Assembly: GCA_031402635.1 (NCBI GenBank)
Contig: JANNSM010000010.1
Span: 1 to 35,683, forward strand
DNA length: 35,683 bases
Source of the DNA: Bacteroidota bacterium
GTDB lineage: Bacteria > Bacteroidota > Bacteroidia > Chitinophagales > BACL12
Direction: 5' to 3'
The notes below the pieces were generated by a model, which saw only the letters and a list, made by a program, of their open reading frames with translations, was not told where the DNA came from and searched no databases. The translations under genes and the position numbers were made by a program. Below are positions 12,661 through 25,951 of this stretch, piece after piece. The number at the start of each line of letters is the position of its first letter. The stretch's first letter is position 1.

Positions 12661-13923
12661 ATGATCGCTGCCGCACTCAGCCTTGCTTTCTGGTTAGGTC
12701 TTGAAGGTTATGTCTATTTCAGCCTCCGGGCGGTTTACGGCCGGCAGCAATCAAGACCTAGTCTTTGGCCCTGGCTCCGAGCTATGGCCATACTCGGATT
12801 TCTTCTGGTATTGGCTACCATTGTTTATTTTCTCATCACGGGAAGACCTATTCGTGCCAACGTGGCCGGCAACCTACTCCTCGGTCTTGCTTTCACTTTT
12901 TTGACCACCAAATTTGTATTTGCCTGCGTACTGCTGGTTGAAGATGTTTATCGCGTTGCACATTGGATATTCCGTCATTTTGTAGGAGCTCTGGGCTACG
13001 GAGAAGGACATCCTGTCAGCCTGGTTTCCCGCAGAAAATTCCTCACCCGGATGGGACTGATCCTGGCCGCGCTGCCTTTTAGTACGTTCCTTTATGGGAT
13101 CACCAAAGGAAAATATGCTTTTCATCTTCACAAGATCACCATTGCCTATCCGGACCTTCCCCCGGCCTTTGACGGCATCAGAATTCTGCAGTTATCCGAC
13201 ATCCATTCCGGCAGCTTTGACGATGTAGACGCCGTGCGAAACGGCCTGGAACTCGCCGCCGGCCAGGGCGCAGATTTATTGCTCTTCACCGGCGATCTGG
13301 TCAACGATTTTGCGGAGGAAGTTTTGCCTTACAAACAAATGCTGAGCGAATTGAGTGCGCCGCTCGGCAAGTTTTCCATTTTGGGAAACCACGACTATGG
13401 CGACTACCCGGGATGGGACAGCCCGGAAGCCAAACAGGAAAATTTCGAAACCCTTCAACGTCACCATGCGGATATGGGTTTTGATTTGCTGAAAAACCGG
13501 CATGTACGCATTACCCGTGGCGCTGAATCACTGGTATTGGCCGGGGTGGAAAACTGGGGCAAACCGCCATTCCCCCAATTTGGCGATCTGGATCTGGCAC
13601 TAAGTGGGACACAACAAGAAGATTTTGTGATTCTGATGTCACACGACCCAACCCATTGGGACGCGAAAGTGCTGCAAAACGAAAAGTTGGTTCACCTCAC
13701 GTTAAGTGGTCATACCCACGGTGCGCAGATGGGCGTTGAAATTCCAGGATTCCTCCGCTGGAGCCCATCCAGTTTTATTTATCCCCGTTGGGCCGGATTG
13801 TACCGCGAAGACCGTAAGTATTTGTACGTCAACCGCGGATTTGGTTTTATCGGATTCCCTGGTCGTGCGGGAATCTGGCCTGAAATTACAATATTGGAGC
13901 TAAAGCGTGGGAATCAGGTCTGA
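12661..13923 (+). CDS. membrane-anchored metallophosphoesterase (calcineurin-like)
   Basis: Hydrophobic N-terminal third with several predicted TM helices. Phosphoesterase motifs then follow: LSDIHSG, GDLVND, GNHD, GHTHG. Confidence 0.85.
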   Translation: MIAAALSLAFWLGLEGYVYFSLRAVYGRQQSRPSLWPWLRAMAILGFLLVLATIVYFLITGRPIRANVAGNLLLGLAFTFLTTKFVFACVLLVEDVYRVAHWIFRHFVGALGYGEGHPVSLVSRRKFLTRMGLILAALPFSTFLYGITKGKYAFHLHKITIAYPDLPPAFDGIRILQLSDIHSGSFDDVDAVRNGLELAAGQGADLLLFTGDLVNDFAEEVLPYKQMLSELSAPLGKFSILGNHDYGDYPGWDSPEAKQENFETLQRHHADMGFDLLKNRHVRITRGAESLVLAGVENWGKPPFPQFGDLDLALSGTQQEDFVILMSHDPTHWDAKVLQNEKLVHLTLSGHTHGAQMGVEIPGFLRWSPSSFIYPRWAGLYREDRKYLYVNRGFGFIGFPGRAGIWPEITILELKRGNQV

Positions 13924-14158
13924 CGCGCTTAAAGTCATAACATTATAACAGCTTCCTGAGAGCGTAATTGTCGTTTCTCAGCACTGGCTCAGTTCTCTAT
14001 ATTTATACCTTGTAACCGGCAAGTACACCGATTAACCAGGTAGATAACCGAAATCCGGGACAAAACCGACATTACGTTTTTACCGGCAATCGTAGAATTC
14101 AGAGCGAATATAAATTTCAATTTTTAAGACACTCCATGAATATAAATTCATATTTTTT

Positions 14159-15256
14159 ATGTTTAAATTAATAAATTACCTGCTATTGATTTTCTGTGCT
14201 TCTCTTGCCGCTGGTCAGCCTATGCCAGATAGTCTGATGACGAAATATCGATTAGCTAAAACTGATGAAGAAAAACACCACTTTATTTATCAATATTTTC
14301 AAAGTTCAGCTTCTGAAGAAGATTATAAAAATCGAGTATTGCAGTTATCAGCATGGTATAAAAAGCAAAATGATGCACTCGGCGCCGATTATGCCGATGC
14401 ACACCTGGCAGATATACTAAACAACAAAGGGGATTATGCAGCATCATTAAATTTGTGTTTTTCTATACTCCCCCGTATTGAAAATCGCACCGACAAGAAC
14501 CAAATTAATTCTTTGTATACCACTATTGGAAACGCTTATTTTTTTTCCAAAAACTTTGAGCAGGGTGCTTTTTACTATAAAAAAATAATTCCACTAACAT
14601 CGGCTACTGATCAAAAGGAATATTTATCGCAATTGTATAATGCAATCGGTTGTATCTATGGTGAAGGAGGGATGCCGGATTCAGGAATGATTTATGCGCA
14701 AAGGGCAGTCAACATTGATACAGAAATGAAGAATTTTCAGCAACTGGCTTTATCCACGAGCACATTAGGTGAAAACTACATTGCCGCAAAAGAATATGAT
14801 ATTGCCCTACCTTACTTGCGGCGATCTATGGGATACTACCTGAGCAAGAAAGCCGAACCAGACAGTTTTTTACTTGCTTATCTAAAAAATGATTTCGCTC
14901 AGGTATTTCTCGCAAACCAGCAATTTGACAGTACAAATTTTTATGCAAATCAGTCTCTTCAGCTATCAATACCTTTCGGGGCGAAAGATCAAAGCATGCG
15001 TTCCTATGAATACCTCCATAAATCTTATGAGCAAACTAATAACCAGGATAGCATAAATAAATATTTTCGCCTGGCAATGACATTAAAGGATTCACTGGTT
15101 GATCTGGAGAAAGTTAAAAACATTCAGGCTTTAAGTTTTCGTGAAGAATTACGTCAACAGGAATTAGAAACAGAAAAAGTAAAAATTGAAGTAGAACGTA
15201 AAACTAATATTCAATTATTTTTACTGAAATTAAAACTAATATTCAATTATTTTTAA
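14159..15256 (+). CDS. TPR-repeat protein, N-terminal fragment as currently encoded
   Basis: Signal peptide MFKLINYLLLIFCASLAAG, TPR-like repeats, then a coiled-coil (REELRQQELETEKVKIEVERK). Ends in out-of-frame residues after the duplication. Confidence 0.6.
   Translation: MFKLINYLLLIFCASLAAGQPMPDSLMTKYRLAKTDEEKHHFIYQYFQSSASEEDYKNRVLQLSAWYKKQNDALGADYADAHLADILNNKGDYAASLNLCFSILPRIENRTDKNQINSLYTTIGNAYFFSKNFEQGAFYYKKIIPLTSATDQKEYLSQLYNAIGCIYGEGGMPDSGMIYAQRAVNIDTEMKNFQQLALSTSTLGENYIAAKEYDIALPYLRRSMGYYLSKKAEPDSFLLAYLKNDFAQVFLANQQFDSTNFYANQSLQLSIPFGAKDQSMRSYEYLHKSYEQTNNQDSINKYFRLAMTLKDSLVDLEKVKNIQALSFREELRQQELETEKVKIEVERKTNIQLFLLKLKLIFNYF
15199..15255 (+). repeat. 25-bp direct repeat pair (32-bp period) with inverted 7-mer junctions
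   Basis: TAAAACTAATATTCAATTATTTTTA occurs at 15199-15223 and 15231-15255. The spacer CTGAAAT (15224-15230) is the reverse complement of ATTTCAG (15256-15262). Confidence 0.95.
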
Positions 15257-15291
15257 TTTCAGTAGGCATTGTCACTCTTATTATTTTATTC

Positions 15292-15594
15292 TTGCTACTC
15301 AGTAGGAGTTTCATTACCAACGTTAAGCTAATTAACTTTTTGGGAGTGATTGCATTGCTTCTCGTTTTTGAATTTATTAACTTACTATTACATCCTTTTT
15401 TAGAAGGTATAACACATCACAAACCTGTGCTAATGCTGCTTTCATTAGTAAGCATAGCAGTAGTTTTAGTGCCCTTGCACCACAGATTAGAAAAATTTAC
15501 GACAACAAAACTAATAGATAAAAACAAAGCTACCCGATTGGCAAATGCAAAAAAGATTATTGAGGAATTGGAAAACAAGACAATCAATACATAG
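15292..15594 (+). CDS. C-terminal membrane fragment of the same TPR protein (TTG-initiated ORF)
   Basis: Two hydrophobic helices (FLGVIALLLVFEFINLLLHPF, VLMLLSLVSIAVVLVPL) and a charged tail. The frame is open back to 15256. Confidence 0.4.
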   Translation: MLLSRSFITNVKLINFLGVIALLLVFEFINLLLHPFLEGITHHKPVLMLLSLVSIAVVLVPLHHRLEKFTTTKLIDKNKATRLANAKKIIEELENKTINT

Positions 15595-15985
15595 TAACTT
15601 AATAAATAGTAAATTATTTAAGAACCCGTTAGTTATTCAGAAGGGCAGACCGCATTTTTTCTAAGAAATGTTCCCCATCGCTTCTGGAATGAAGAGGAAG
15701 AAGACCTTTTAGTAAGCGGTTGGATAAAACCTGCAAACAGAATTGTTTTCTATTTGTCTTTCTTGTATGCAGCTCAAAAAATGTCCGGTAGCGGGCGGCC
15801 GAAAGCGTTTGACGGCGCTTACCTGATCACCAGATACAAGTATGAGTTCGGCTTGCAAGAGATGCCTGGTTTTGTTATAAAAGTATTTATGCATTTGACC
15901 TATTTCATAGGAAGATATATGGGTAAGTATAAAAAATTGGACGACGCACCTGAACCTTTAAATTAATCTCATGCCTGGGTATTGG

Positions 15986-16021
15986 AATTAAAAGAGGTGA
16001 CCTGTTGCCAGGCCACCTCTT
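15986..16021 (-). terminator. rho-independent terminator downstream of katG
   Basis: AAGAGGTGACCTG (15992-16004) pairs with CAGGCCACCTCTT (16009-16021): 13 bp, one mismatch, loop TTGC. On the minus strand it is followed by TTTTAATT. Confidence 0.6.
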
Positions 16022-16163
16022 AACAATACTTACTAAAGCAAACACTACTGCTTTTCGATGAACTCATTGAATGCACCTTGCATCGTGAGAGCTTTGTTTT
16101 TCTACATTTCTCTTTTTATCTGACTTTCAGCCTTTGTTTATGTTTCTAGCGAAAGCGCCGACA

Positions 16164-18404
<2,241 letters not shown>

Positions 18405-18901: not shown

Positions 18902-19057
18902 TCAAATCGGCTTTCGCCCACTAATGACTCGAAAAATTAAAGCAATAAAAGCAATAACTAATAATATATGAATAATACCACCTTCATTATACCCAATAAA
19001 ACCAATTGCCCAGCCTATTACAAGTAATACTGCGATTACATAGAGTAAATTTCCCAT
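18902..19057 (-). CDS. small membrane protein, lmo0937-like family (51 aa)
   Basis: Below the track cutoff. Hand translation: MGNLLYVIAVLLVIGWAIGFIGYNEGGIIHILLVIAFIALIFRVISGRKPI. Two TM helices, and resembles the lmo0937-type small stress proteins as I recall them. ATG at 19055-19057, TGA at 18902-18904. Confidence 0.7.
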   Translation of the reverse strand: MGNLLYVIAVLLVIGWAIGFIGYNEGGIIHILLVIAFIALIFRVISGRKPI

Positions 19058-19091: not shown

Positions 19092-19153
19092 CAAAAATGC
19101 AGGTTATTGTTAATGGCCTCCTTACATAATTCACAAATAAAATTGCATTATTC
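19092..19153 (-). promoter_or_regulatory. 62-bp promoter module for the lmo0937-like gene
   Basis: Minus strand: GAATAATGCAAT (19153-19142), GAATTATGTAAG (19132-19121), 20 nt, GCATTTTTG (19100-19092). The box ends 35 nt before the ATG. Confidence 0.55.
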
Positions 19154-19386
19154 ACATTACGATGACCTGTGTAGGTCCAAATATCAAGGAAGAACCGTTG
19201 TAAAGCTGATCACATCTTTAATCACGCTTAACTGAATAAACGGAAACTTTTACGATCAAGATTAGCGCTTTATAGGAAATAGATTCGTTTCGACTGTTGT
19301 AGAATTATTGCAAAGGTTGCTGTGACTCTTTAACCATCTTTATGTTTATCTTACCACATAATTGGAATATTAGCCTAGCAAGGTGT

Positions 19387-19448
19387 AAATTATGTAACTA
19401 TTTTTGATTGTTATGTAAGAAAAATGGAGGATACTGGTGTAACCTTTA
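19387..19448 (+). promoter_or_regulatory. 62-bp promoter module for the araC-HK-REC operon
   Basis: AAATTATGTAAC (19387-19398), TTGTTATGTAAG (19408-19419), 20 nt, TAACCTTTA (19440-19448). The box ends 28 nt before the TTG start at 19476. Confidence 0.5.
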
Positions 19449-19475
19449 CGAGTAATAAACTTCTAAGAAGCCTAT

Positions 19476-20036
19476 TTGACACTTCATATTAAATACATGG
19501 TAAGTGCCCGCTGCAAAACAGCAGTTAAACAAGTGCTAAAAAGCATGGGGCTCCATTTCATTGTTGTTGATTTAGGAGAAGTAGATATACTCGAAAATCT
19601 CTCCAGTCAGCAGTTAGAGGAATTAAGAGCTTTACTATCTGACGTTGGGTTTGAACTGATGGACGATAAACGCGCAATATTAATTCAACAGATCAAAAAT
19701 ATAGTTATAGAAATGGTTCATCATTCTGATGTATTAATAAAGACAAATTTTTCAGATTACTTGAGCAGCAAACTAAATCATGACTATACCTATATGGCAA
19801 ACTTATTTTCTGAAGTTCAGGGAACTACTATTGAGCATTTTATAATACTACATAAAATTGAACGTATTAAAGAATTAATTATGTATAACGAATTAAATAT
19901 AACTGAAATTTCCTATAAGATGAATTATAGTAGTGTTGCCCACTTGTCAAATCAGTTTAAAAAAGTTACTGGATTATCACCAACACACTTTAAACAATTA
20001 AAGGTTAAAAAACGCAAACCTATAGAAGAGATTTAA
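19476..20036 (+). CDS. AraC family transcriptional regulator with a small non-REC N-terminal domain
   Basis: C-terminal AraC HTH (HFIILHKIERIKELI...ITEISYKMNYSSVAHLSNQFKKVTGLSPTHFK). The TTG start keeps TLHIKYMVSARC, which resembles the conserved N-terminal strand of this family. The alternative ATG is at 19497. Confidence 0.85.
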   Translation: MTLHIKYMVSARCKTAVKQVLKSMGLHFIVVDLGEVDILENLSSQQLEELRALLSDVGFELMDDKRAILIQQIKNIVIEMVHHSDVLIKTNFSDYLSSKLNHDYTYMANLFSEVQGTTIEHFIILHKIERIKELIMYNELNITEISYKMNYSSVAHLSNQFKKVTGLSPTHFKQLKVKKRKPIEEI

Positions 20037-20046
20037 TTACTGTATC

Positions 20047-22146
20047 ATGAATAAAAAAGTAAATCTTAATATTAATAATGATACTAATTATCAAGATATT
20101 GATTCTGTAAAAGACGTTAAAGAAGTAGAAGAAAATGAGCAAAGAAGGCTGGGATCCTATGCCAGAAGTTTAATTGAAGCGAGTTTAGACCCGCTGGTTA
20201 CGATAAGCAAAGAAGGTATAATAACAGATGTAAATAACGCATCCGTAGTGGTAACTGGTACTCCACGTAACCAATTAATAGGCACAGATTTCTCTATATA
20301 CTTTACTGAACCTTTAAAAGCACAAGAAGGATATAAATTAGTATTTAAAAATGGATTTGTTGCAGATTATCCTCTAACAATAAAAAGTAAAGACGGCAAT
20401 TTAACAGACGTTCTATACAATGCGTCAGTATATAAAAATGAAAATGGTATTGTTTTAGGAGTATTTGCGTCTGCCCGGGATATTACAGAACAGAAAAGAA
20501 TATCGAATGAATTAATTGAAGCCAAAATTTTTGCCGAACTGGCAACATCATTAGCTGAGGAAGCCCAAAATAAAGCAGAAAAAGCAGAATCTGTTGCTAA
20601 AAACGCCTTACATACTAAACAACTTTTTCTCTCTAATATGAGTCATGAGATTCGTACTCCCATGAATGCCATATTAGGATTTACAAAAGTGCTGTTAAAA
20701 ACTGATCTGACAGAAAAACAACACGAATACTTAAGTGCTATAAAAATAAGCGGTGACGCATTAATAGTACTTATTAATGACATTCTTGATCTAGCTAAAG
20801 TTGATGCGGGTAAAATGAGCTTCGAACAAGTTCCATTTAAAATGTATGCCTCGGTATCTGCTATGCTACAGTTATTAGAGACCAAGATTCAGGAAAAAAA
20901 CTTAAAAATAATAAGTGAATATGATCCCCGTATTCCACAAGTTCTTATTGGAGATCCACTTCGCCTCCATCAAATTATTCTCAATTTGTTAAGTAATGCA
21001 GTAAAGTTTACCTTATCAGGAAAGATTACTGTTAGTGTTTCTTTAGAAAGTGAAGATGATATAAATGCCACTATTAAATTTTCTGTTACAGATACCGGTA
21101 TTGGAATACCGGCTAATAAAATAGATAAAATTTTTGATATTTTTCAACAGGCTACAACTGAAACTGCACGACTATATGGGGGCACAGGGCTAGGACTAGC
21201 TATTGTCAAACAATTAGTAGAACTCCAGGGAGGGGCTATAGAAGTGAAAAGTCAAATAAATAAAGGTTCTACATTCAATTTCACAATGAGTTTTAGAAAA
21301 ACACCAATAGTAGTTTATGAAATTGAAAGTAGAATATCTAATACCCATAAACATGCAATAAAAGTATTAGTTGTGGAAGATATTCTGCTTAATCAACTCT
21401 TAATCAAAACATTGCTTGAGGACTTCGGATTTCAATGTGACATTGCCGATAATGGAAAAATTGCAATAGATAAAATGCAAGCAGATTTTTATGATGTTAT
21501 TTTAATGGACCTTCAAATGCCAGTAATGAACGGCTTTGAAACTACGGCATATATACGTAAGAATTTAAATTCTACAATTCCAATACTAGCCCTTTCTGCC
21601 GATGTAACTAGTGCTAACCTTACAAAATGTAAGCTTGCCGGGATGAATGATTATATAGCCAAACCTATAGATGAACGCCTACTATACAATAAATTAATAA
21701 ATTTAATTGAGAAATCCAATATTGAAAGTTACACGAGTAATTCCGAAAAAACCAAAATAGCACCATTGACTGAAGCTATTAGGTCCACAAATCTTACTTA
21801 CCTCTATCAGCGAACAAAATCGAATCCAAAACTGATGCTAGAAATGATATCAGCATACTTAGAACAAACCCCGACATTAATAAACGCTATGATGTCGAGT
21901 TATAATAATAAGAATTATAATCTTCTACAGGCTACCATGCACAAAATTGCACCCTCTTTCTCAATTATGGGAATAAAGGCTGAATATGAGATTATGGCAA
22001 AGAAAATTCTCCAATATGCGACCGCCAAACAGGACAACGGTGATATACGACAAATGGTTTTAGAAATTGAAAATATCTGCAAGATGGCGTGTACGGAACT
22101 CCAGGAAGAACTTAAATTAATTAAAATTCAAATCAATGCAGAATAA
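20047..22146 (+). CDS. soluble hybrid sensor histidine kinase (PAS-HisKA-HATPase-REC-Hpt)
   Basis: No TM segment. PAS-like region (LDPLVTISKEGIITDVN). H-box SHEIRTPMNAI. G-boxes DTGIGI and GGTGLGLAIV. REC domain (VLVVEDILLN...ILMDLQMP). C-terminal Hpt-like MHKIAPSFSIMG. Confidence 0.9.
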   Translation: MNKKVNLNINNDTNYQDIDSVKDVKEVEENEQRRLGSYARSLIEASLDPLVTISKEGIITDVNNASVVVTGTPRNQLIGTDFSIYFTEPLKAQEGYKLVFKNGFVADYPLTIKSKDGNLTDVLYNASVYKNENGIVLGVFASARDITEQKRISNELIEAKIFAELATSLAEEAQNKAEKAESVAKNALHTKQLFLSNMSHEIRTPMNAILGFTKVLLKTDLTEKQHEYLSAIKISGDALIVLINDILDLAKVDAGKMSFEQVPFKMYASVSAMLQLLETKIQEKNLKIISEYDPRIPQVLIGDPLRLHQIILNLLSNAVKFTLSGKITVSVSLESEDDINATIKFSVTDTGIGIPANKIDKIFDIFQQATTETARLYGGTGLGLAIVKQLVELQGGAIEVKSQINKGSTFNFTMSFRKTPIVVYEIESRISNTHKHAIKVLVVEDILLNQLLIKTLLEDFGFQCDIADNGKIAIDKMQADFYDVILMDLQMPVMNGFETTAYIRKNLNSTIPILALSADVTSANLTKCKLAGMNDYIAKPIDERLLYNKLINLIEKSNIESYTSNSEKTKIAPLTEAIRSTNLTYLYQRTKSNPKLMLEMISAYLEQTPTLINAMMSSYNNKNYNLLQATMHKIAPSFSIMGIKAEYEIMAKKILQYATAKQDNGDIRQMVLEIENICKMACTELQEELKLIKIQINAE

Positions 22147-22564
22147 AGTAAAACTTTTTCTTGTAGATGATGATGCAGTATTTTTAGTATCATTAAAAAT
22201 AGAGTTTATGCAAAATGCTGACTTTATAATTGAAACGTATGCAACTGGAGAGCTTTGCATTAATAATTTGTCGCTGAATCCGGACGTCATCATATTAGAC
22301 TATAAATTAGACGGTATAGATAAAAATGCAATGGACGGGATAAATACACTTGACAATATAAAAGCATTTAATTCAAACATCCCTGTTATTATCCTTAGTG
22401 CGCAGGATAGTATCGACGTGGCTATTAATTGCATGCATCACCATGCTTTTGATTATGTTATAAAAAACGAAACCACATTTATAAGACTTCGCAAAATTAT
22501 TGAAACGATATTTACTTACAAAAAAATAGAAAAGGAACTTAAGTGGTACATGGATAGACACTAG
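22136..22564 (+). CDS. single-domain response regulator (REC only)
   Basis: 142 aa. KLFLVDDD, acceptor Asp in IILDYKLDG, DYVIKNE. No output domain. Overlaps the kinase stop by 11 nt. Confidence 0.88.
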   Translation: MQNKVKLFLVDDDAVFLVSLKIEFMQNADFIIETYATGELCINNLSLNPDVIILDYKLDGIDKNAMDGINTLDNIKAFNSNIPVIILSAQDSIDVAINCMHHHAFDYVIKNETTFIRLRKIIETIFTYKKIEKELKWYMDRH

Positions 22565-22631
22565 TGTACTTATTTTATTAATTATAAAATTAATTTTTTT
22601 AGTTTATTATTTTTCAGCAACCAAATGGTGT

Positions 22632-22693
22632 GAATAATACAAGGTATTAAAATAATAGTGTAACATAGTTATGTCAGTGGGTAGGTAGTTTTA
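22632..22693 (+). promoter_or_regulatory. 62-bp promoter module for the OM beta-barrel gene
   Basis: GAATAATACAAG (22632-22643), TAATAGTGTAAC (22653-22664), 20 nt, GTAGTTTTA (22685-22693). The box ends 31 nt before the ATG at 22724. Confidence 0.5.
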
Positions 22694-22723
22694 CACTATT
22701 ATTAAAACTAATAAAAAACTAAG

Positions 22724-23434
22724 ATGAAAAATCTACAAAGTAAAATTATAGTATGCGCCTCTTTCGCTGCTATTCTTTTGGTATCGGCCCAAATTGCAAA
22801 TTCTCAAACAAGTTCAAGTTATGATGCAGATAGCAAGCATTTTGAATTTGGGGTAAATTTTATGCCCACTATTGCAACTTTTGACACTAAAGCTTCTGAT
22901 GGATCAATCATAAATGGCAAAGGAAAATTGGGCTATGGCGGCGGAGTCAATCTAGGATACAACTTTTCCCAACATGTCGGAGTTCAGGCGGAGTTACTAT
23001 ACTTTGCTATTTCACAAAAAAATGAAGAGCAAAATATCACACACCAGGTAAATCTACACTATGTCAATATTCCTTTGTTGCTCTCTCTTAATACAGGAAT
23101 AATGAAACCGGTCAACTTAAATTTAGTATTTGGTCCACAGTTAGGTGTAAGTGTAGGTGGTAATGTAAAAACCAGCAACGGCGACGGAACAAACACTACA
23201 GAAGCCATTTTAGACATAAAAGGCGGGGACTTAGGTCTTGCTTACGGGGCAGGATTAGATTTTGCAATAAATGAAGCACATACCTTACGCTTAGGTTTAG
23301 GCTTTAGGGGTGTTTACGGTCTAATCGACGTTAGCGATAACAACAAAACAACGAATAGCAATTCCTTCTTAATTCTTGACAAGAGTCATATAAAAACATA
23401 CTCTGCCTACCTCGGTATGTCCGTTCTATTCTGA
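22724..23434 (+). CDS. outer-membrane beta-barrel (porin-family) protein
   Basis: Signal peptide MKNLQSKIIVCASFAAILLVSAQ. Alternating Gly/aromatic beta-strand pattern. C-terminal ...YLGMSVLF ends in Phe. Confidence 0.75.
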   Translation: MKNLQSKIIVCASFAAILLVSAQIANSQTSSSYDADSKHFEFGVNFMPTIATFDTKASDGSIINGKGKLGYGGGVNLGYNFSQHVGVQAELLYFAISQKNEEQNITHQVNLHYVNIPLLLSLNTGIMKPVNLNLVFGPQLGVSVGGNVKTSNGDGTNTTEAILDIKGGDLGLAYGAGLDFAINEAHTLRLGLGFRGVYGLIDVSDNNKTTNSNSFLILDKSHIKTYSAYLGMSVLF

Positions 23435-23467
23435 AGACAAAGGCTTAAGAGCCAATATTAAAGCAAG

Positions 23468-23497
23468 AGCTCTGCAAAAAAGCAGGGCTTTTGTTTT
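23468..23497 (+). terminator. rho-independent terminator after the OMP gene
   Basis: AGCTCTGC (23468-23475) pairs with GCAGGGCT (23482-23489), including one G-U pair. Loop AAAAAA, followed by TTTTGTTTT. Confidence 0.65.
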
Positions 23498-23521
23498 ATT
23501 TCTGATACAGAGCATAAGTGT

Positions 23522-23583
23522 GAATGCTACAATTTTTTAAGCAAATTATGTAACATATCATGGATTCTAAAAGTTCATCTTTA
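23522..23583 (+). promoter_or_regulatory. 62-bp promoter module for the ytxH operon
   Basis: GAATGCTACAAT (23522-23533), AAATTATGTAAC (23543-23554), 20 nt, TCATCTTTA (23575-23583). The box ends 36 nt before the ATG at 23619. Confidence 0.55.
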
Positions 23584-23618
23584 CTTAAATCAATTAGTCA
23601 CAATAAAAGATAAATATC

Positions 23619-23903
23619 ATGAGTAACAATGAAAAGGTATTGCTGGGTGTATTGGCAGGAGTTGCTGTAGGTGCGACTTTGGGAATTTTGTTTGCACCTG
23701 ATAAAGGTCTGAATACCAGGAATAAAATTTCAGCCAAAGGAAATGACTATGCAGAAGGGCTAGAAGATCAGTTCAATACTTTTATTGAAAGTATAACTCA
23801 CAAATTTGAGCAATTAAAAACTGAGGCTGAAATGACTGCAAAACGAGTTAAGGATAAAACGAATGAGGTTATAGCAAGATCGAATGCGGTTACTACAATA
23901 TAA
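23619..23903 (+). CDS. YtxH domain-containing protein
   Basis: N-terminus LLGVLAGVAVGATLGILFAPDKG is the characteristic YtxH TM/glycine-zipper segment. An amphipathic charged helix follows. Confidence 0.85.
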   Translation: MSNNEKVLLGVLAGVAVGATLGILFAPDKGLNTRNKISAKGNDYAEGLEDQFNTFIESITHKFEQLKTEAEMTAKRVKDKTNEVIARSNAVTTI

Positions 23904-23909
23904 AGACAC

Positions 23910-24251
23910 ATGAAAACGAGTGCAAGCATGTTTGAGAACATGTATGAACAGATTGAGGCTTACAGCAAAACCCGGCTTGAACTTTCAAAACTAAAAGCAG
24001 TTGAAACTACAGCCGGTTTAGCTTCAACAGTAATCTCAAAAGGTGGTGTTTCTATCATGCTTGCACTTTTTTTTATTGTCTTCAATATTGGAATTGCACT
24101 GTGGCTGGGTGAATTATTTGGGAAAAATTACTACGGCTTTTTTACTATTGCTGCATTCTACCTGGTTGCAGGAGTTCTACTTCATTTTTTCTTACCAAAT
24201 TTTATTAGAAAACCGGTCAGCGAGTTAATCATTTCACAGACATTGCACTAA
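23910..24251 (+). CDS. two-TM membrane protein, holin-X/DUF1469-like
   Basis: 113 aa. Two hydrophobic helices (VSIMLALFFIVFNIGIALWLG, FFTIAAFYLVAGVLLHFF). Starts 7 nt after ytxH. Confidence 0.6.
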   Translation: MKTSASMFENMYEQIEAYSKTRLELSKLKAVETTAGLASTVISKGGVSIMLALFFIVFNIGIALWLGELFGKNYYGFFTIAAFYLVAGVLLHFFLPNFIRKPVSELIISQTLH

Positions 24252-24253
24252 GC

Positions 24254-24688
24254 ATGGAAAAAATACTTACTGAAACAGATTTAAAAGCCGCCATTATGCT
24301 TTTAGAGCTTAGGCAGGAAAAGGAAAGAGTCCAGCTAATAAGTGAGCTATATCAAGTTTATGAAAGCATTAGGCCTATCAACATGATTAAAAGTACAATT
24401 AACGAAATCGTTTATTCGCAGGAAATAAGGAACAATTTATTAAACACAAGTATTGTTGTAGCAACCAGCTGTATCTCAAAGACTTTATTTAAAGGTGTTT
24501 CACACAGTCCTATTAGAAAACTACTTGGTACAGCACTAATGTTTGGAGTAACCAATTTTATTACAAAAAATCCAGAGGCCATACAATCATTAACTGATGG
24601 GATATTTAGGGAAATCAAAAATAAAATGAGCAATAAAAGTAGTGAAACCGGGAATACAGAAATTCCTTCAATTATTACAAATGTATGA
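24254..24688 (+). CDS. hypothetical protein, third gene of the ytxH operon
   Basis: 144-aa ORF starting 3 nt after the previous stop. No motif recognised. Confidence 0.6.
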   Translation: MEKILTETDLKAAIMLLELRQEKERVQLISELYQVYESIRPINMIKSTINEIVYSQEIRNNLLNTSIVVATSCISKTLFKGVSHSPIRKLLGTALMFGVTNFITKNPEAIQSLTDGIFREIKNKMSNKSSETGNTEIPSIITNV

Positions 24689-24811
24689 CTAACAACTAAA
24701 ATATTATTTATTCAATCATAGTTTTAATAATAATTTATTTTTTATTGTTTAGTGCAACTATTTTTTTCTACTTAAGTAATATACTAAATATATCTATTAA
24801 TAACAAGATTA

Positions 24812-24873
24812 GAATGATGTAAGTCTTTAGAGAAATTGTGTAAAACTTTATACCACCAATAAGCTCATCTTTA
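24812..24873 (+). promoter_or_regulatory. 62-bp promoter module for the csbD operon
   Basis: GAATGATGTAAG (24812-24823), AAATTGTGTAAA (24833-24844), 20 nt, TCATCTTTA (24865-24873). The box ends 39 nt before the ATG at 24912. Confidence 0.55.
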
Positions 24874-24911: not shown

Positions 24912-25097
24912 ATGAATACTACAGAAGGTAAAGGAAACTGGAACGAACAAAAAGGTAAACTGAAACAAAAATTCGCAATCTTAACCGATAACGATTTGAT
25001 GTTTGCTGAAGGTAAAAAGGAGGAAATGTTAGGCCGGCTTCAAATTACTCTCGGCAAAACAAAAGAAGAATTAATGGAGATTATTGCAAAATTGTAG
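24912..25097 (+). CDS. CsbD family general-stress protein
   Basis: 61 aa. GNWNEQKGKLKQKFAILTDNDLMFAEGKKEEMLGRLQ matches the CsbD pattern. Confidence 0.88.
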   Translation: MNTTEGKGNWNEQKGKLKQKFAILTDNDLMFAEGKKEEMLGRLQITLGKTKEELMEIIAKL

Positions 25098-25121
25098 TAA
25101 TCACTTAAATTAAAGTATTAA

Positions 25122-25583
25122 ATGAAAAAGAAAATATTACTTGCTTTATCTTTGGTGACGGGAAGTTTAGCTTTTTTCGGTTGTCAGTCTACGGAACAGA
25201 AGCAAAAAACGGCTGAGGCAACGGTTCAAGAAACGCAAAAAGACCTGATAGAGGCTCGCAACGACGTCAATGAAGAGGCGAAAAAAAGTGCAACAAACGA
25301 GGAATGGAGTGCTTATCGCAATCAAATGCTGGTTAAAATCCAGGCAAATGAAAAACAAATCGCAGTGTTAAAAGCAAAAATGGATAAGTCCGGAAAATTG
25401 CTTGATGCCGCATATGCCAAAAAGATTGAGTCGTTAGAAGACAAAAACAACGAACTGAAGCAAAGAATGGATGAATACGAAAAGAGTCAAAGTGATTGGG
25501 AATCATTCAAGCGCGAGTTTAATCACGACATTAACGAACTTGAGAACGCTTTGAAGGATATAATGGTTGACAATAATGATTGA
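25122..25583 (+). CDS. coiled-coil lipoprotein, unknown function
   Basis: Signal plus lipobox MKKKILLALSLVTGSLAFFGC. Lys/Glu-rich helical remainder. Starts 24 nt after csbD. Confidence 0.7.
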   Translation: MKKKILLALSLVTGSLAFFGCQSTEQKQKTAEATVQETQKDLIEARNDVNEEAKKSATNEEWSAYRNQMLVKIQANEKQIAVLKAKMDKSGKLLDAAYAKKIESLEDKNNELKQRMDEYEKSQSDWESFKREFNHDINELENALKDIMVDNND

Positions 25584-25648: not shown

Positions 25649-25681
25649 AAAGCAAGTTAGTAAATCTACTAACTTGCTTTT
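25649..25681 (+). terminator. AT-rich 14-bp hairpin terminator ending the island
   Basis: AAAGCAAGTTAGTA (25649-25662) pairs perfectly with TACTAACTTGCTTT (25667-25680). Loop AATC, ending in a TTTT run. Confidence 0.65.
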
Positions 25682-25698
25682 GTCGGGGTGACTGGATT
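25682..25698 (-). repeat. 17-bp direct copy of the tRNA-Pro 3' end (att-like scar)
   Basis: GTCGGGGTGACTGGATT at 25682-25698 is identical to 25877-25893 inside tRNA-Pro (discriminator, acceptor 3' strand, half of the T-arm). It sits exactly at the GC switch. Confidence 0.85.
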
Positions 25699-25874: not shown

Positions 25875-25951
25875 TGGTCGGGGTGACTGGATTCGAACCA
25901 GCGGCCTCCTCGTCCCGAACGAGGCGCGCTACCGAACTGCGCTACACCCCG
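25875..25951 (-). tRNA. tRNA-Pro (anticodon CGG), CCA encoded
   Basis: Minus strand: CGGGGTG TA GCGC AGTTCGGTA GCGC G CCTCG TTCGGGA CGAGG AGGCC GCTGG TTCGAAT CCAGT CACCCCG A CCA. 77 nt, clean cloverleaf. Confidence 0.92.

Follow-up and report, generated by a model that had tools for sequence, protein, structure and literature searches.

A 35,683-nucleotide stretch of Bacteroidota DNA (contig JANNSM010000010.1 of assembly GCA_031402635.1; the whole of this stretch is referred to here as the window) contains an AT-rich block at 18.9-25.6 kb that holds exactly five transcription units, and each of these units is preceded by one copy of a 67-bp promoter module aimed at its gene. The module is a promoter design that is conserved across the phylum Bacteroidota. 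Taken jointly, the observations are best explained if the modules are promoters of the housekeeping RNA polymerase that are activated by an AraC-family protein encoded in the same block, and that serve a general-stress-type regulon controlled by a kinase and a receiver; we put the probability of this explanation at about 0.7.

An earlier note on this DNA had described the five upstream regions by ten 12-mers and five 9-mers, all of which were found in place by exact match in the window. The distal 12-mers start at 19153 (minus strand), 19387, 22632, 23522 and 24812. In every copy the proximal 12-mer starts exactly 21 nucleotides (nt) after the distal one, and the 9-mer, referred to here as the box, begins exactly 20 nt past the end of the proximal 12-mer; the geometry proposed for the five modules is therefore exact throughout. 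From the end of the box to the start codon there are 28-39 nt, provided that araC starts at the TTG at 19476. The half-sites were located correctly as 12-mers, but their true length is about 17 bp: an alignment of the five copies revealed GTGT directly 5′ of the distal GAAT in four of them, and the distal half-site reaches 5 nt further upstream, with (T)GTGT before GAAT.

The modules lie upstream of an lmo0937/DUF5670 gene (19092-19158, minus strand), the araC-kinase-receiver operon (19382-19448, plus strand; the putative autoregulatory copy), an outer-membrane beta-barrel gene (22627-22693, plus strand), ytxH with two small genes (23517-23583, plus strand), and csbD with a gene for an sll1863-family lipoprotein (24807-24873, plus strand). 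With a weight matrix derived from other genomes they score 29.9, 30.6, 29.9, 30.4 and 25.4 bits, respectively. Their boxes are GCATTTTTG (at lmo0937), TAACCTTTA, GTAGTTTTA (at the beta-barrel gene, the weakest at 2.0 bits) and TCATCTTTA (twice). The window copies score low relative to the consensus, between the 5th and 15th percentile of the copies found elsewhere.

Short A/T-rich words recur frequently in DNA of this composition (GC content 0.32-0.34 in the block, compared with 0.52 in the rest of the window), and the resemblance could in principle reflect chance, a dispersed mobile repeat or a structured RNA leader. However, a loose pattern of the paired sites (T..TRYAA-N13-T..TRYAA) matches 6 times in the window against 0.14 expected from whole-window shuffles; for the AT-rich block alone, 2,000 dinucleotide shuffles gave an expectation of 0.12 and a maximum of 3. 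When spacings of 8-40 nt were compared, only 21 was enriched, with 6 pairs against 0-1 at every other spacing. A 38-column weight matrix, trained solely on loci from other genomes to avoid circularity, scores the five window sites at 25-31 bits and the remainder of the 35.7 kb, on both strands, below 18 bits; among 2,000 shuffles of the AT-rich block, none scored above 16 bits. Chance is thus excluded, and the frequency in shuffled AT-rich sequence that the earlier note had named as a check on its own proposal speaks for it. The same holds for its second check, on coding regions: one loosely matching pair lies within the receiver gene (22458-22486, minus strand) and falls below the matrix cut, and no module lies inside a coding sequence of the window. 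Neither the AT-rich block A (13.5-16 kb) nor the region upstream of katG nor the rest of the window yielded a further module. A mobile repeat is ruled out by conservation that is position-specific, with variable spacers, and directed at genes that are orthologous across several orders. A riboswitch or other structured cis-regulatory RNA is likewise ruled out, as no module has an Rfam match and the five copies share no common fold, their folding energies being ordinary (z-scores 0.7, -0.3, -2.0, 1.2 and -1.6). We regard the probability of this whole group of explanations as negligible.

The conservation of the module was established in two sets of loci. The first comprises 80 genome loci chosen via homology to the AraC protein (81 loci in the clustering of open reading frames, ORFs), from Bacteroidales, Prolixibacteraceae, Paludibacter, Odoribacter, Chitinophagaceae, Saprospiraceae, Flavobacteriaceae, Cytophagales, Pedobacter and Mucilaginibacter; the second comprises 120 metagenome loci chosen by the DNA motif alone. 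Together, 196 of these loci contain about 470 further modules, namely 233 in 76 of the 80 araC-selected loci and 237 in the 120 motif-selected loci. They yield the consensus tGTGTGAATnATGTAAc-N12-TTnTGTAAc-N22-AnCTTTG, and the distribution of matrix scores in the araC-selected loci is sharply bimodal. Conserved columns are found only in the two half-sites and the box, whilst the spacers vary: between the half-sites a T-rich stretch gives way to an A-rich one, and the 21-22 nt before the box are unconstrained. The 21-bp register of the half-sites is constant across the approximately 470 copies. The box lies at one fixed offset in 204 of 238 genome-locus copies (1 nt closer in 28) and in 215 of 237 metagenome copies. 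A same-strand ORF with an ATG start follows within 300 nt for 230 of 236 genome-locus modules and 220 of 237 metagenome modules, with a median distance of 39-40 nt from box to ORF start. These recurrences in other Bacteroidota, each with a gene about 40 nt downstream, bear out the proposal that the five window modules are promoters of one design.

Two of the genome loci (L030 and L079) are typical Bacteroidota araC cassettes in metagenome-assembled genomes (MAGs) labelled Bifidobacteriaceae and Hyphomicrobiales; these labels are probably binning errors and do not indicate a wider taxonomic range.

The box corresponds to the -7 element of Bacteroidota promoters, TAnnTTTG, as had been proposed. 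Its columns read A (0.90), n, C (0.74), T (0.98), T (0.99), T (0.83) and G (0.72) at a fixed spacing, and the leading T of the consensus is not conserved in the modules (C, 0.47). The -33 TTTG that usually lies about 19 nt upstream of the -7 element is absent: the columns at this position read A-A-C-A, which is the end of the proximal half-site, and no TTG is conserved. The suggestion that the proximal site takes the place of the -33 element is borne out in that its AAC occupies this position. Between the end of TGTAAC in the proximal half-site and the conserved A of the box there are 22 nt, a distance that fits a proximal half-site overlapping the -35/-33 region. A scan for promoters of the Escherichia coli -35/-10 type gave fewer matches than in shuffled sequence, and is uninformative for Bacteroidota.

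The same TGTAAC could be read as the -35 element of a promoter for an alternative sigma factor of the extracytoplasmic function (ECF) type, since ECF promoters typically have -35 elements resembling GTAAC or GGAAC. This is very improbable. The columns 16-17 nt past TGTAAC, where the second element of such a promoter should lie, are not conserved (columns 54-58 are uninformative), and downstream conservation is limited to one element at a distance of 22 nt, which agrees with the -7 consensus of housekeeping promoters. Furthermore, a second copy of the upstream element is present exactly 21 bp upstream, which a sigma factor does not need, and no sigma or anti-sigma gene is conserved among the loci. 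An ECF sigma promoter was rejected on these grounds.

The preferred reading is that of a promoter dependent on an AraC-type activator. The direct repeat of asymmetric half-sites at 21 bp, the I1-I2 layout of AraC, is present in all five window copies, and this exact spacing and register, fixed in the copies elsewhere, uphold the comparison with I1-I2 that the earlier note had drawn. The protein most likely to read the module is the resident AraC protein itself. This assignment follows from apparent autoregulation, from the lack of a linked alternative, and from the shape of the site together with a conservation of the recognition helices that matches that of the motif. The araC gene carries the module itself, within 200 nt upstream in 56 of 79 orthologous loci, and in several others the module lies one small ORF further upstream. 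Among ORF families defined by all-against-all clustering, only AraC (81 of 81 loci), the kinase (65 of 81) and the receiver (58 of 81) are present in most loci, and hence no other linked DNA-binding protein comes forward as a candidate. The claim that araC has its own module therefore stands. The link between the protein and the module is one of guilt by association and geometric fit, and binding is predicted from these.

In 73 of 80 loci araC is followed by the kinase gene, whose product is about 60-65% identical, and in 61 of 80 the receiver gene comes after the kinase (62-77% identity). Extra PAS modules are found between araC and the kinase in many genomes. In the closest relative (L001, 78%) the divergent order of lmo0937 and araC-kinase-receiver is the same as in the window. 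Four loci (L009, L027, L031 and L055) have, between module and araC, a conserved ORF of 66-72 amino acids (…YKEGD.V.AKENP…L.VRRY.D.IYYCKV…ELVYFEREL) that belongs to no Pfam family and is apparently the first gene of the regulator operon.

An alternative accepts the module and assigns it to an unlinked factor, for instance a CRP/FNR-type protein at the distal TGTGA, with the AraC operon as just another member of the regulon. The distal site does open with TGTGA, a CRP half-site; the regulon is dispersed and most motif-selected loci lack an AraC gene; and co-location in the genome set is biased by the way these loci were selected. However, the units are asymmetric direct repeats and not a palindrome, the second half TAAC(T) is a poor match to TCACA, and the proximal unit has no TGTGA. 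Besides, conservation across the loci extends to no further DNA-binding gene, most genomes have the module ahead of araC, and invariant recognition helices in AraC go along with an invariant motif. We consider an unlinked factor unlikely.

The candidate regulator, to which we assign the reading of the module, is a protein of 186 amino acids encoded at 19476-20036 (plus strand), with an HMA-like N-terminal domain, a long linker helix and an AraC/XylS domain with two helix-turn-helix (HTH) units. Translation probably starts at the TTG at 19476, because this start fits the MKLYIKYMVS N-terminus of homologues and the 186-residue relatives annotated by PGAP. Membership of the AraC/XylS family is clear from Pfam matches to HTH_18 (53 bits; cut-off 33.6) and HTH_AraC (28.2 bits; cut-off 26.6); in NCBIfam the protein has sub-threshold matches to generic AraC members only and obtains no curated name. 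An AlphaFold2 model with a mean predicted local distance difference test score (pLDDT) of 83 comprises a beta-alpha-beta-beta-alpha-beta N-terminal domain, a 20-residue helix and a seven-helix AraC domain (residues 92-176). The C-terminal half of the model has template modelling (TM) scores of 0.7-0.77 to AraT (6swi), YesN, MarA, SoxS and the AraC DNA-binding domain, with AraT and the C-terminal domain of YesN as the best structural matches.

More than 8,000 AraC homologues were found, and the best 120 among the matches listed are 74-82% identical over their full length; between orders, identities are 72-82%. The host is an uncultured member of the Bacteroidota. Its glutamyl-tRNA synthetase (GluRS) shares 75% identity with the enzyme of a Bacteroidota MAG and about 57% with those of Saprospiraceae/Lewinella, so that within the phylum the AraC protein varies less than this housekeeping enzyme. 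An alignment of 37 homologues shows little or no variation in the two recognition helices (DYTY.ANLFSEVQG and YSSVAHLSNQFKKVTG).

A second HMA-like AraC paralogue, 59-64% identical and with near-identical recognition helices, lies beside the main copy in 11 of the 80 genome loci (L015, L020, L024, L034, L037, L039, L048, L051, L057, L059 and L069). Another locus (L062) has two more distant copies, at about 48%, and the motif-selected metagenome loci also hold such paralogues (57-71%). On the Runella rosea plasmid NZ_CP030852.1 (L203, 7025-9561), a 52%-identical paralogue with the SxxC loop is divergent from an annotated ice-binding family gene, and a 30-bit module in the shared intergenic region faces the ice-binding gene, about 300 nt from its annotated start.

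The N-terminal domain has the ferredoxin-like fold of HMA domains. In the model, DSSP assigns strands to residues 2-6, 28-32 and 35-38, helices to 11-23 and 44-56, and a further short strand, and the domain superposes on Atx1, GolB, CopZ and HAH1 with TM scores of about 0.7 and root-mean-square deviations of 2.3-2.9 Å. HMA is also the top Pfam match for the N-terminal 83 residues, with a score of 15 bits that lies below the cut-off of 24.8 (E=0.035). The metal-binding loop GMxCxxC is missing: the loop reads YMVSARC, and in the 37 homologues (loop MVSxRC) Ser10 and Cys13 are invariant, so that the first Cys of the CxxC pair is Ser in all.

An intact pair was seen only in distant relatives from Hymenobacter. 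A 44%-identical protein with the loop MVCPQC is encoded on the Hymenobacter sp. DG25B plasmid NZ_CP010057.1 (L202, 8947-9570), where its gene ends a cluster that also comprises genes for a P-type ATPase and a cupredoxin; the cluster is bordered by DUF305, heavy-metal-binding and TolC genes. A gene for an HMA-AraC protein of the MVCPQC type is present on fifteen Hymenobacter plasmids. No module was found near the L202 relative, which has different recognition helices, and this speaks for the resident AraC protein as the reader of the module. Because the MVCPQC relatives adjoin a P-type ATPase and a cupredoxin, the HMA-AraC family probably began as metal sensors, from which the SxxC subfamily seen here was derived.

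This ancestry bears on a further alternative, in which the AraC protein does bind the module and its HMA-like domain, in place of the kinase and receiver, senses metal or thiol redox state through the invariant Cys, which would make this a metal or oxidative regulon and not a general stress regulon. The fold resembles copper chaperones, Cys13 is invariant, family members with intact CxxC adjoin P-type ATPase, cupredoxin and DUF305 genes on the Hymenobacter plasmids, katG is adjacent in the window and bacterioferritin is among the targets. By contrast, the first Cys of the metal pair is Ser in every one of the aligned homologues, the recurrent targets include no gene for metal efflux, nearly all loci have the kinase and receiver in one transcription unit with the regulator, and katG was not found in the other loci. 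Direct sensing is a serious alternative but, in our judgement, an improbable one.

Signal input to the AraC activator is better sought in the two genes downstream. The first (20047-22146, plus strand) encodes a cytoplasmic PAS hybrid histidine kinase, with one PAS domain and no hydrophobic N-terminus. HisKA (H-box SHEIRTPMN), HATPase_c and a receiver domain lie on one chain, all above their Pfam cut-offs, and a histidine phosphotransfer (Hpt) domain is probable: the Hpt match scores 16.3 bits against a cut-off of 24.6 (E=0.012), covers profile positions 1-47 including the His (MHKIAPSFSIMG), and the kinase aligns to ArcB through the Hpt region of the latter. The second gene (22136-22564, plus strand) overlaps the kinase stop codon and encodes a stand-alone receiver of 142 amino acids (Pfam Response_reg) with no output domain; judged by eye, DDD makes up an acidic pocket, and the Asp of ILDY, a Ser and a Lys stand at receiver-like positions.

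From these components the following mechanism can be proposed. Each module would be an activator-dependent promoter for the Bacteroidota housekeeping (sigma-A type) RNA polymerase, in which the -7 element (AnCTTTG/A) has been kept and the -33 TTTG would have been replaced by two asymmetric half-sites of about 17 bp, arranged as a direct repeat 21 bp apart. At mapped promoters of Bacteroides and Flavobacterium, transcription begins a few nt past the -7 box; if this also applies to the predicted start sites here, the half-sites would be centred near -63 and -42. The 186-residue AraC protein would bind as two protomers, one per half-site and each using its two HTH units, with the HMA-like N-terminal domains perhaps joining the two. 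In the manner of a class II activator, the proximal protomer would touch RNA polymerase in place of the missing -33 contact, and so activate rather than repress; acting at its own operon, the protein would generate positive feedback. The PAS hybrid kinase, its probable Hpt domain and the stand-alone receiver probably set the activity of the regulator in response to presumed inducing signals. As the regulator has no receiver domain of its own, the likeliest route is a protein-protein contact with the phosphorylated receiver. The output would be a dispersed regulon of small genes for envelope, osmotic, desiccation and cold protection, that is, a general-stress-type response built on an activator and not on an alternative sigma factor. 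In this genome, the regulator and four target units lie together on a low-GC insert next to a tRNA-Pro gene.

The target genes support such an output. The 450 ORFs downstream of modules were clustered, and representatives were scanned against Pfam and NCBIfam. Apart from the AraC gene itself (64 members), the commonest target family is CsbD (44), followed by ice-binding-like (DUF3494) secreted proteins (32), lmo0937/DUF5670 (26), a small C-terminally anchored protein and an OmpA-family lipoprotein (20 each), a small cupin (17), MlaE (14), YtxH (13), histidine kinases and DUF6600 (11 each), an sll1863-like lipoprotein (8) and beta-barrel outer-membrane proteins (7). Among the less frequent families are YceI, bacterioferritin, an AI-2E-family transporter and DUF6629. 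The families CsbD, YtxH, lmo0937/DUF5670, sll1863, OmpA, bacterioferritin and YceI are general stress markers; the view that the targets belong to general-stress-type families is thus confirmed by the recurrence of the same families after modules in other genomes. The recurrent families point to protection of the envelope and against osmotic stress, desiccation and cold. An AraC homologue is present in 21 of the 120 motif-selected loci, and in 8 of 37 of those that are at least 8 kb long, which indicates that the regulon reaches well past the neighbourhood of its regulator.

Several points weigh against this interpretation as a whole. The genome loci were picked via AraC, so that co-location of regulator and module in this set is partly built in, and the 21 of 120 motif-selected loci demonstrate dispersal, a count that says nothing on whether the motif is missing where the regulator is. 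Where a second paralogue of about 60% identity with the same recognition helices is present, the binder could be either protein. The likeness between the two half-sites is confined to their 3′ two-thirds, and the TGTG extension, which resembles a CRP half-site, is found on the distal one only. The HMA and Hpt assignments both lie below the Pfam thresholds, and synteny is the one line of evidence that joins the kinase to a regulator lacking a receiver. Finally, the window copies are weak and lie on an insert of foreign GC content, and their activity in this host is accordingly a prediction only.

The block was proposed to be an island-encoded regulon, which is apt for this genome and not for the phylum. 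A low-GC araC cluster is found only here, since in 30 full-length loci of other genomes the GC content of the cluster equals that of its flanks; elsewhere the regulon is phylum-wide and dispersed. In the window, a tRNA-Pro(CGG) gene (25875-25951, minus strand) lies 290 nt beyond the last gene of the block. The 3′ end of this tRNA gene recurs, with 19 of 20 nt matching, at the edge of the block (25679-25698), 195 nt from the tRNA and right after a terminator-like hairpin (25649-25680); this copy may be what is left of an attachment site. A GC-rich, palindromic stretch of 176 nt separates it from the original. A search for an integrase ORF in the window and for a repeat at the left end of the block found neither.

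The target units of the window are as follows. The lmo0937-family/DUF5670 gene (18902-19057, minus strand) encodes a small membrane protein of 51 amino acids (Pfam PF18919, E=6e-13; NCBIfam NF033488). The outer-membrane beta-barrel gene (OMP_b-brl_2 in Pfam; 22724-23434, plus strand), which has seven homologues after modules elsewhere, is closed by a terminator-like hairpin (23459-23498, plus strand). The ytxH operon (23619-24688, plus strand) encodes YtxH (23619-23903; Pfam E=3e-19), a holin-X-like membrane protein with a sub-threshold Pfam match to Phage_holin_3_6 (23910-24251) and a 144-residue protein without known family (24254-24688). The csbD operon (24912-25583, plus strand) encodes CsbD (24912-25097; Pfam) and an sll1863-family stress lipoprotein (25122-25583; NCBIfam NF052504). 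In the promoter of the beta-barrel gene (22653-22701), whose box is the poorest of the five, the proximal half-site recurs in inverted orientation (TAATAGTGTAAA, minus strand, 22701-22690) immediately past the -7-like box, so that the two form a 13-bp inverted repeat; the second copy could be an extra, possibly repressive, site, or chance.

A second AT-rich block (13500-16100, GC 0.34) contains no module. It encodes a tetratricopeptide repeat (TPR) protein (14159-15256) that is weakly similar to the N-terminal region of FimS, and two small ORFs without family. The two AT-rich blocks are separated by katG (16164-18401, minus strand), which has a host-like GC content.

To our knowledge, Bacteroidota lack RpoS, sigma-B and PhyR/EcfG, and no general stress regulator is established for the phylum. 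A full-text literature search of sources other than subscription journals returned no description of the motif, regulator or regulon, and no Rfam family or NCBIfam model describes them. The present analysis supplies an exactly defined cis-element, a weight matrix with which to search for it, a regulator cassette of three named genes and a first regulon list, so that the regulon is now predictable in any genome of a phylum that includes important gut, soil, marine and cryosphere organisms. The system is a candidate for the Bacteroidota general stress response. A bolder claim, for which the odds are below even and which we put forward tentatively, is that the cassette is the master switch of this response: promoters would be selected by an HMA-derived AraC activator in place of an alternative sigma factor, a phosphorelay from the cytoplasmic PAS hybrid kinase would end on the stand-alone receiver and reach the activator by protein contact, and the cassette could pass from lineage to lineage together with starter targets, as in this window. 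If the proposed mechanism is true, a stress regulon is wired via an activator on the housekeeping polymerase, and a new domain pairing has joined a metal-chaperone fold without metal site to an AraC DNA-binding domain. It would also explain the co-regulation of ice-binding-like proteins with osmotic and envelope protectants, and the tightly defined activator-dependent promoter could become a tool for regulated expression in Bacteroidota.

Amongst known systems, the module most closely recalls the sites of AraC (I1-I2), of RhaS at rhaBAD and of XylS at Pm, which are direct repeats 21 bp apart with the proximal unit overlapping the -35 element. AraC, RhaS, RhaR, XylS and MelR share with the present system a two-HTH domain, half-sites of about 17 bp in a 21-bp direct repeat and, as proposed here, a promoter that is weak without activator, and autoregulation. 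Unlike in this class, an HMA-like ferredoxin fold takes the place of a cupin sugar-binding domain at the N-terminus, the promoter is built on the Bacteroidota -33/-7 architecture, and in place of a sugar operon there are dozens of dispersed stress targets and a regulator co-transcribed with a kinase and a receiver. Direct repeats of 21-bp period just upstream of the -35 element are also recognised by LytTR response regulators such as AgrA, ComE and PlnC. This family was rejected as a candidate: its repeat sequence is unrelated, and despite the same period no LytTR-domain gene is found in the window or conserved in the loci.

The hybrid two-component systems (HTCS) of Bacteroides and the YesN/AraT-type regulators couple histidine-kinase phosphotransfer to an AraC-type DNA-binding domain, as the present system would. 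Here, however, the functions are spread over three polypeptides and the AraC protein lacks a receiver, the sensory part is a cytoplasmic PAS domain in place of a periplasmic glycan sensor, and the targets are not polysaccharide utilisation loci. The CxxC-type HMA-AraC proteins of Hymenobacter plasmids, annotated only as AraC family, share the two-domain architecture, the length and 42-44% identity over 93%; they differ in the loop (MVCPQC, compared with MVSARC in the window), the recognition helices and their metal-gene neighbours, and no stress module lies nearby.

In its output, the system overlaps with the regulons of sigma-B in Firmicutes, RpoS in Gammaproteobacteria and PhyR-NepR-sigma-EcfG in Alphaproteobacteria (CsbD, YtxH, lmo0937-type, OmpA-like and Dps/ferritin-like proteins), and it would share with them an autoregulated regulator operon, a histidine kinase/receiver input (as for PhyR) and a dispersed regulon with one promoter signature. 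It differs from all three in its proposed use of an activator on the housekeeping polymerase, and in having no anti-sigma or partner-switching genes. The protein is therefore neither a metal-binding HMA protein, having lost the CxxC, nor a fused HTCS or YesN, having no receiver, and the system is not a sigma-based stress system; by its DNA-binding domain the protein is a member of the AraC/XylS family, and the system would work like a class II activator.

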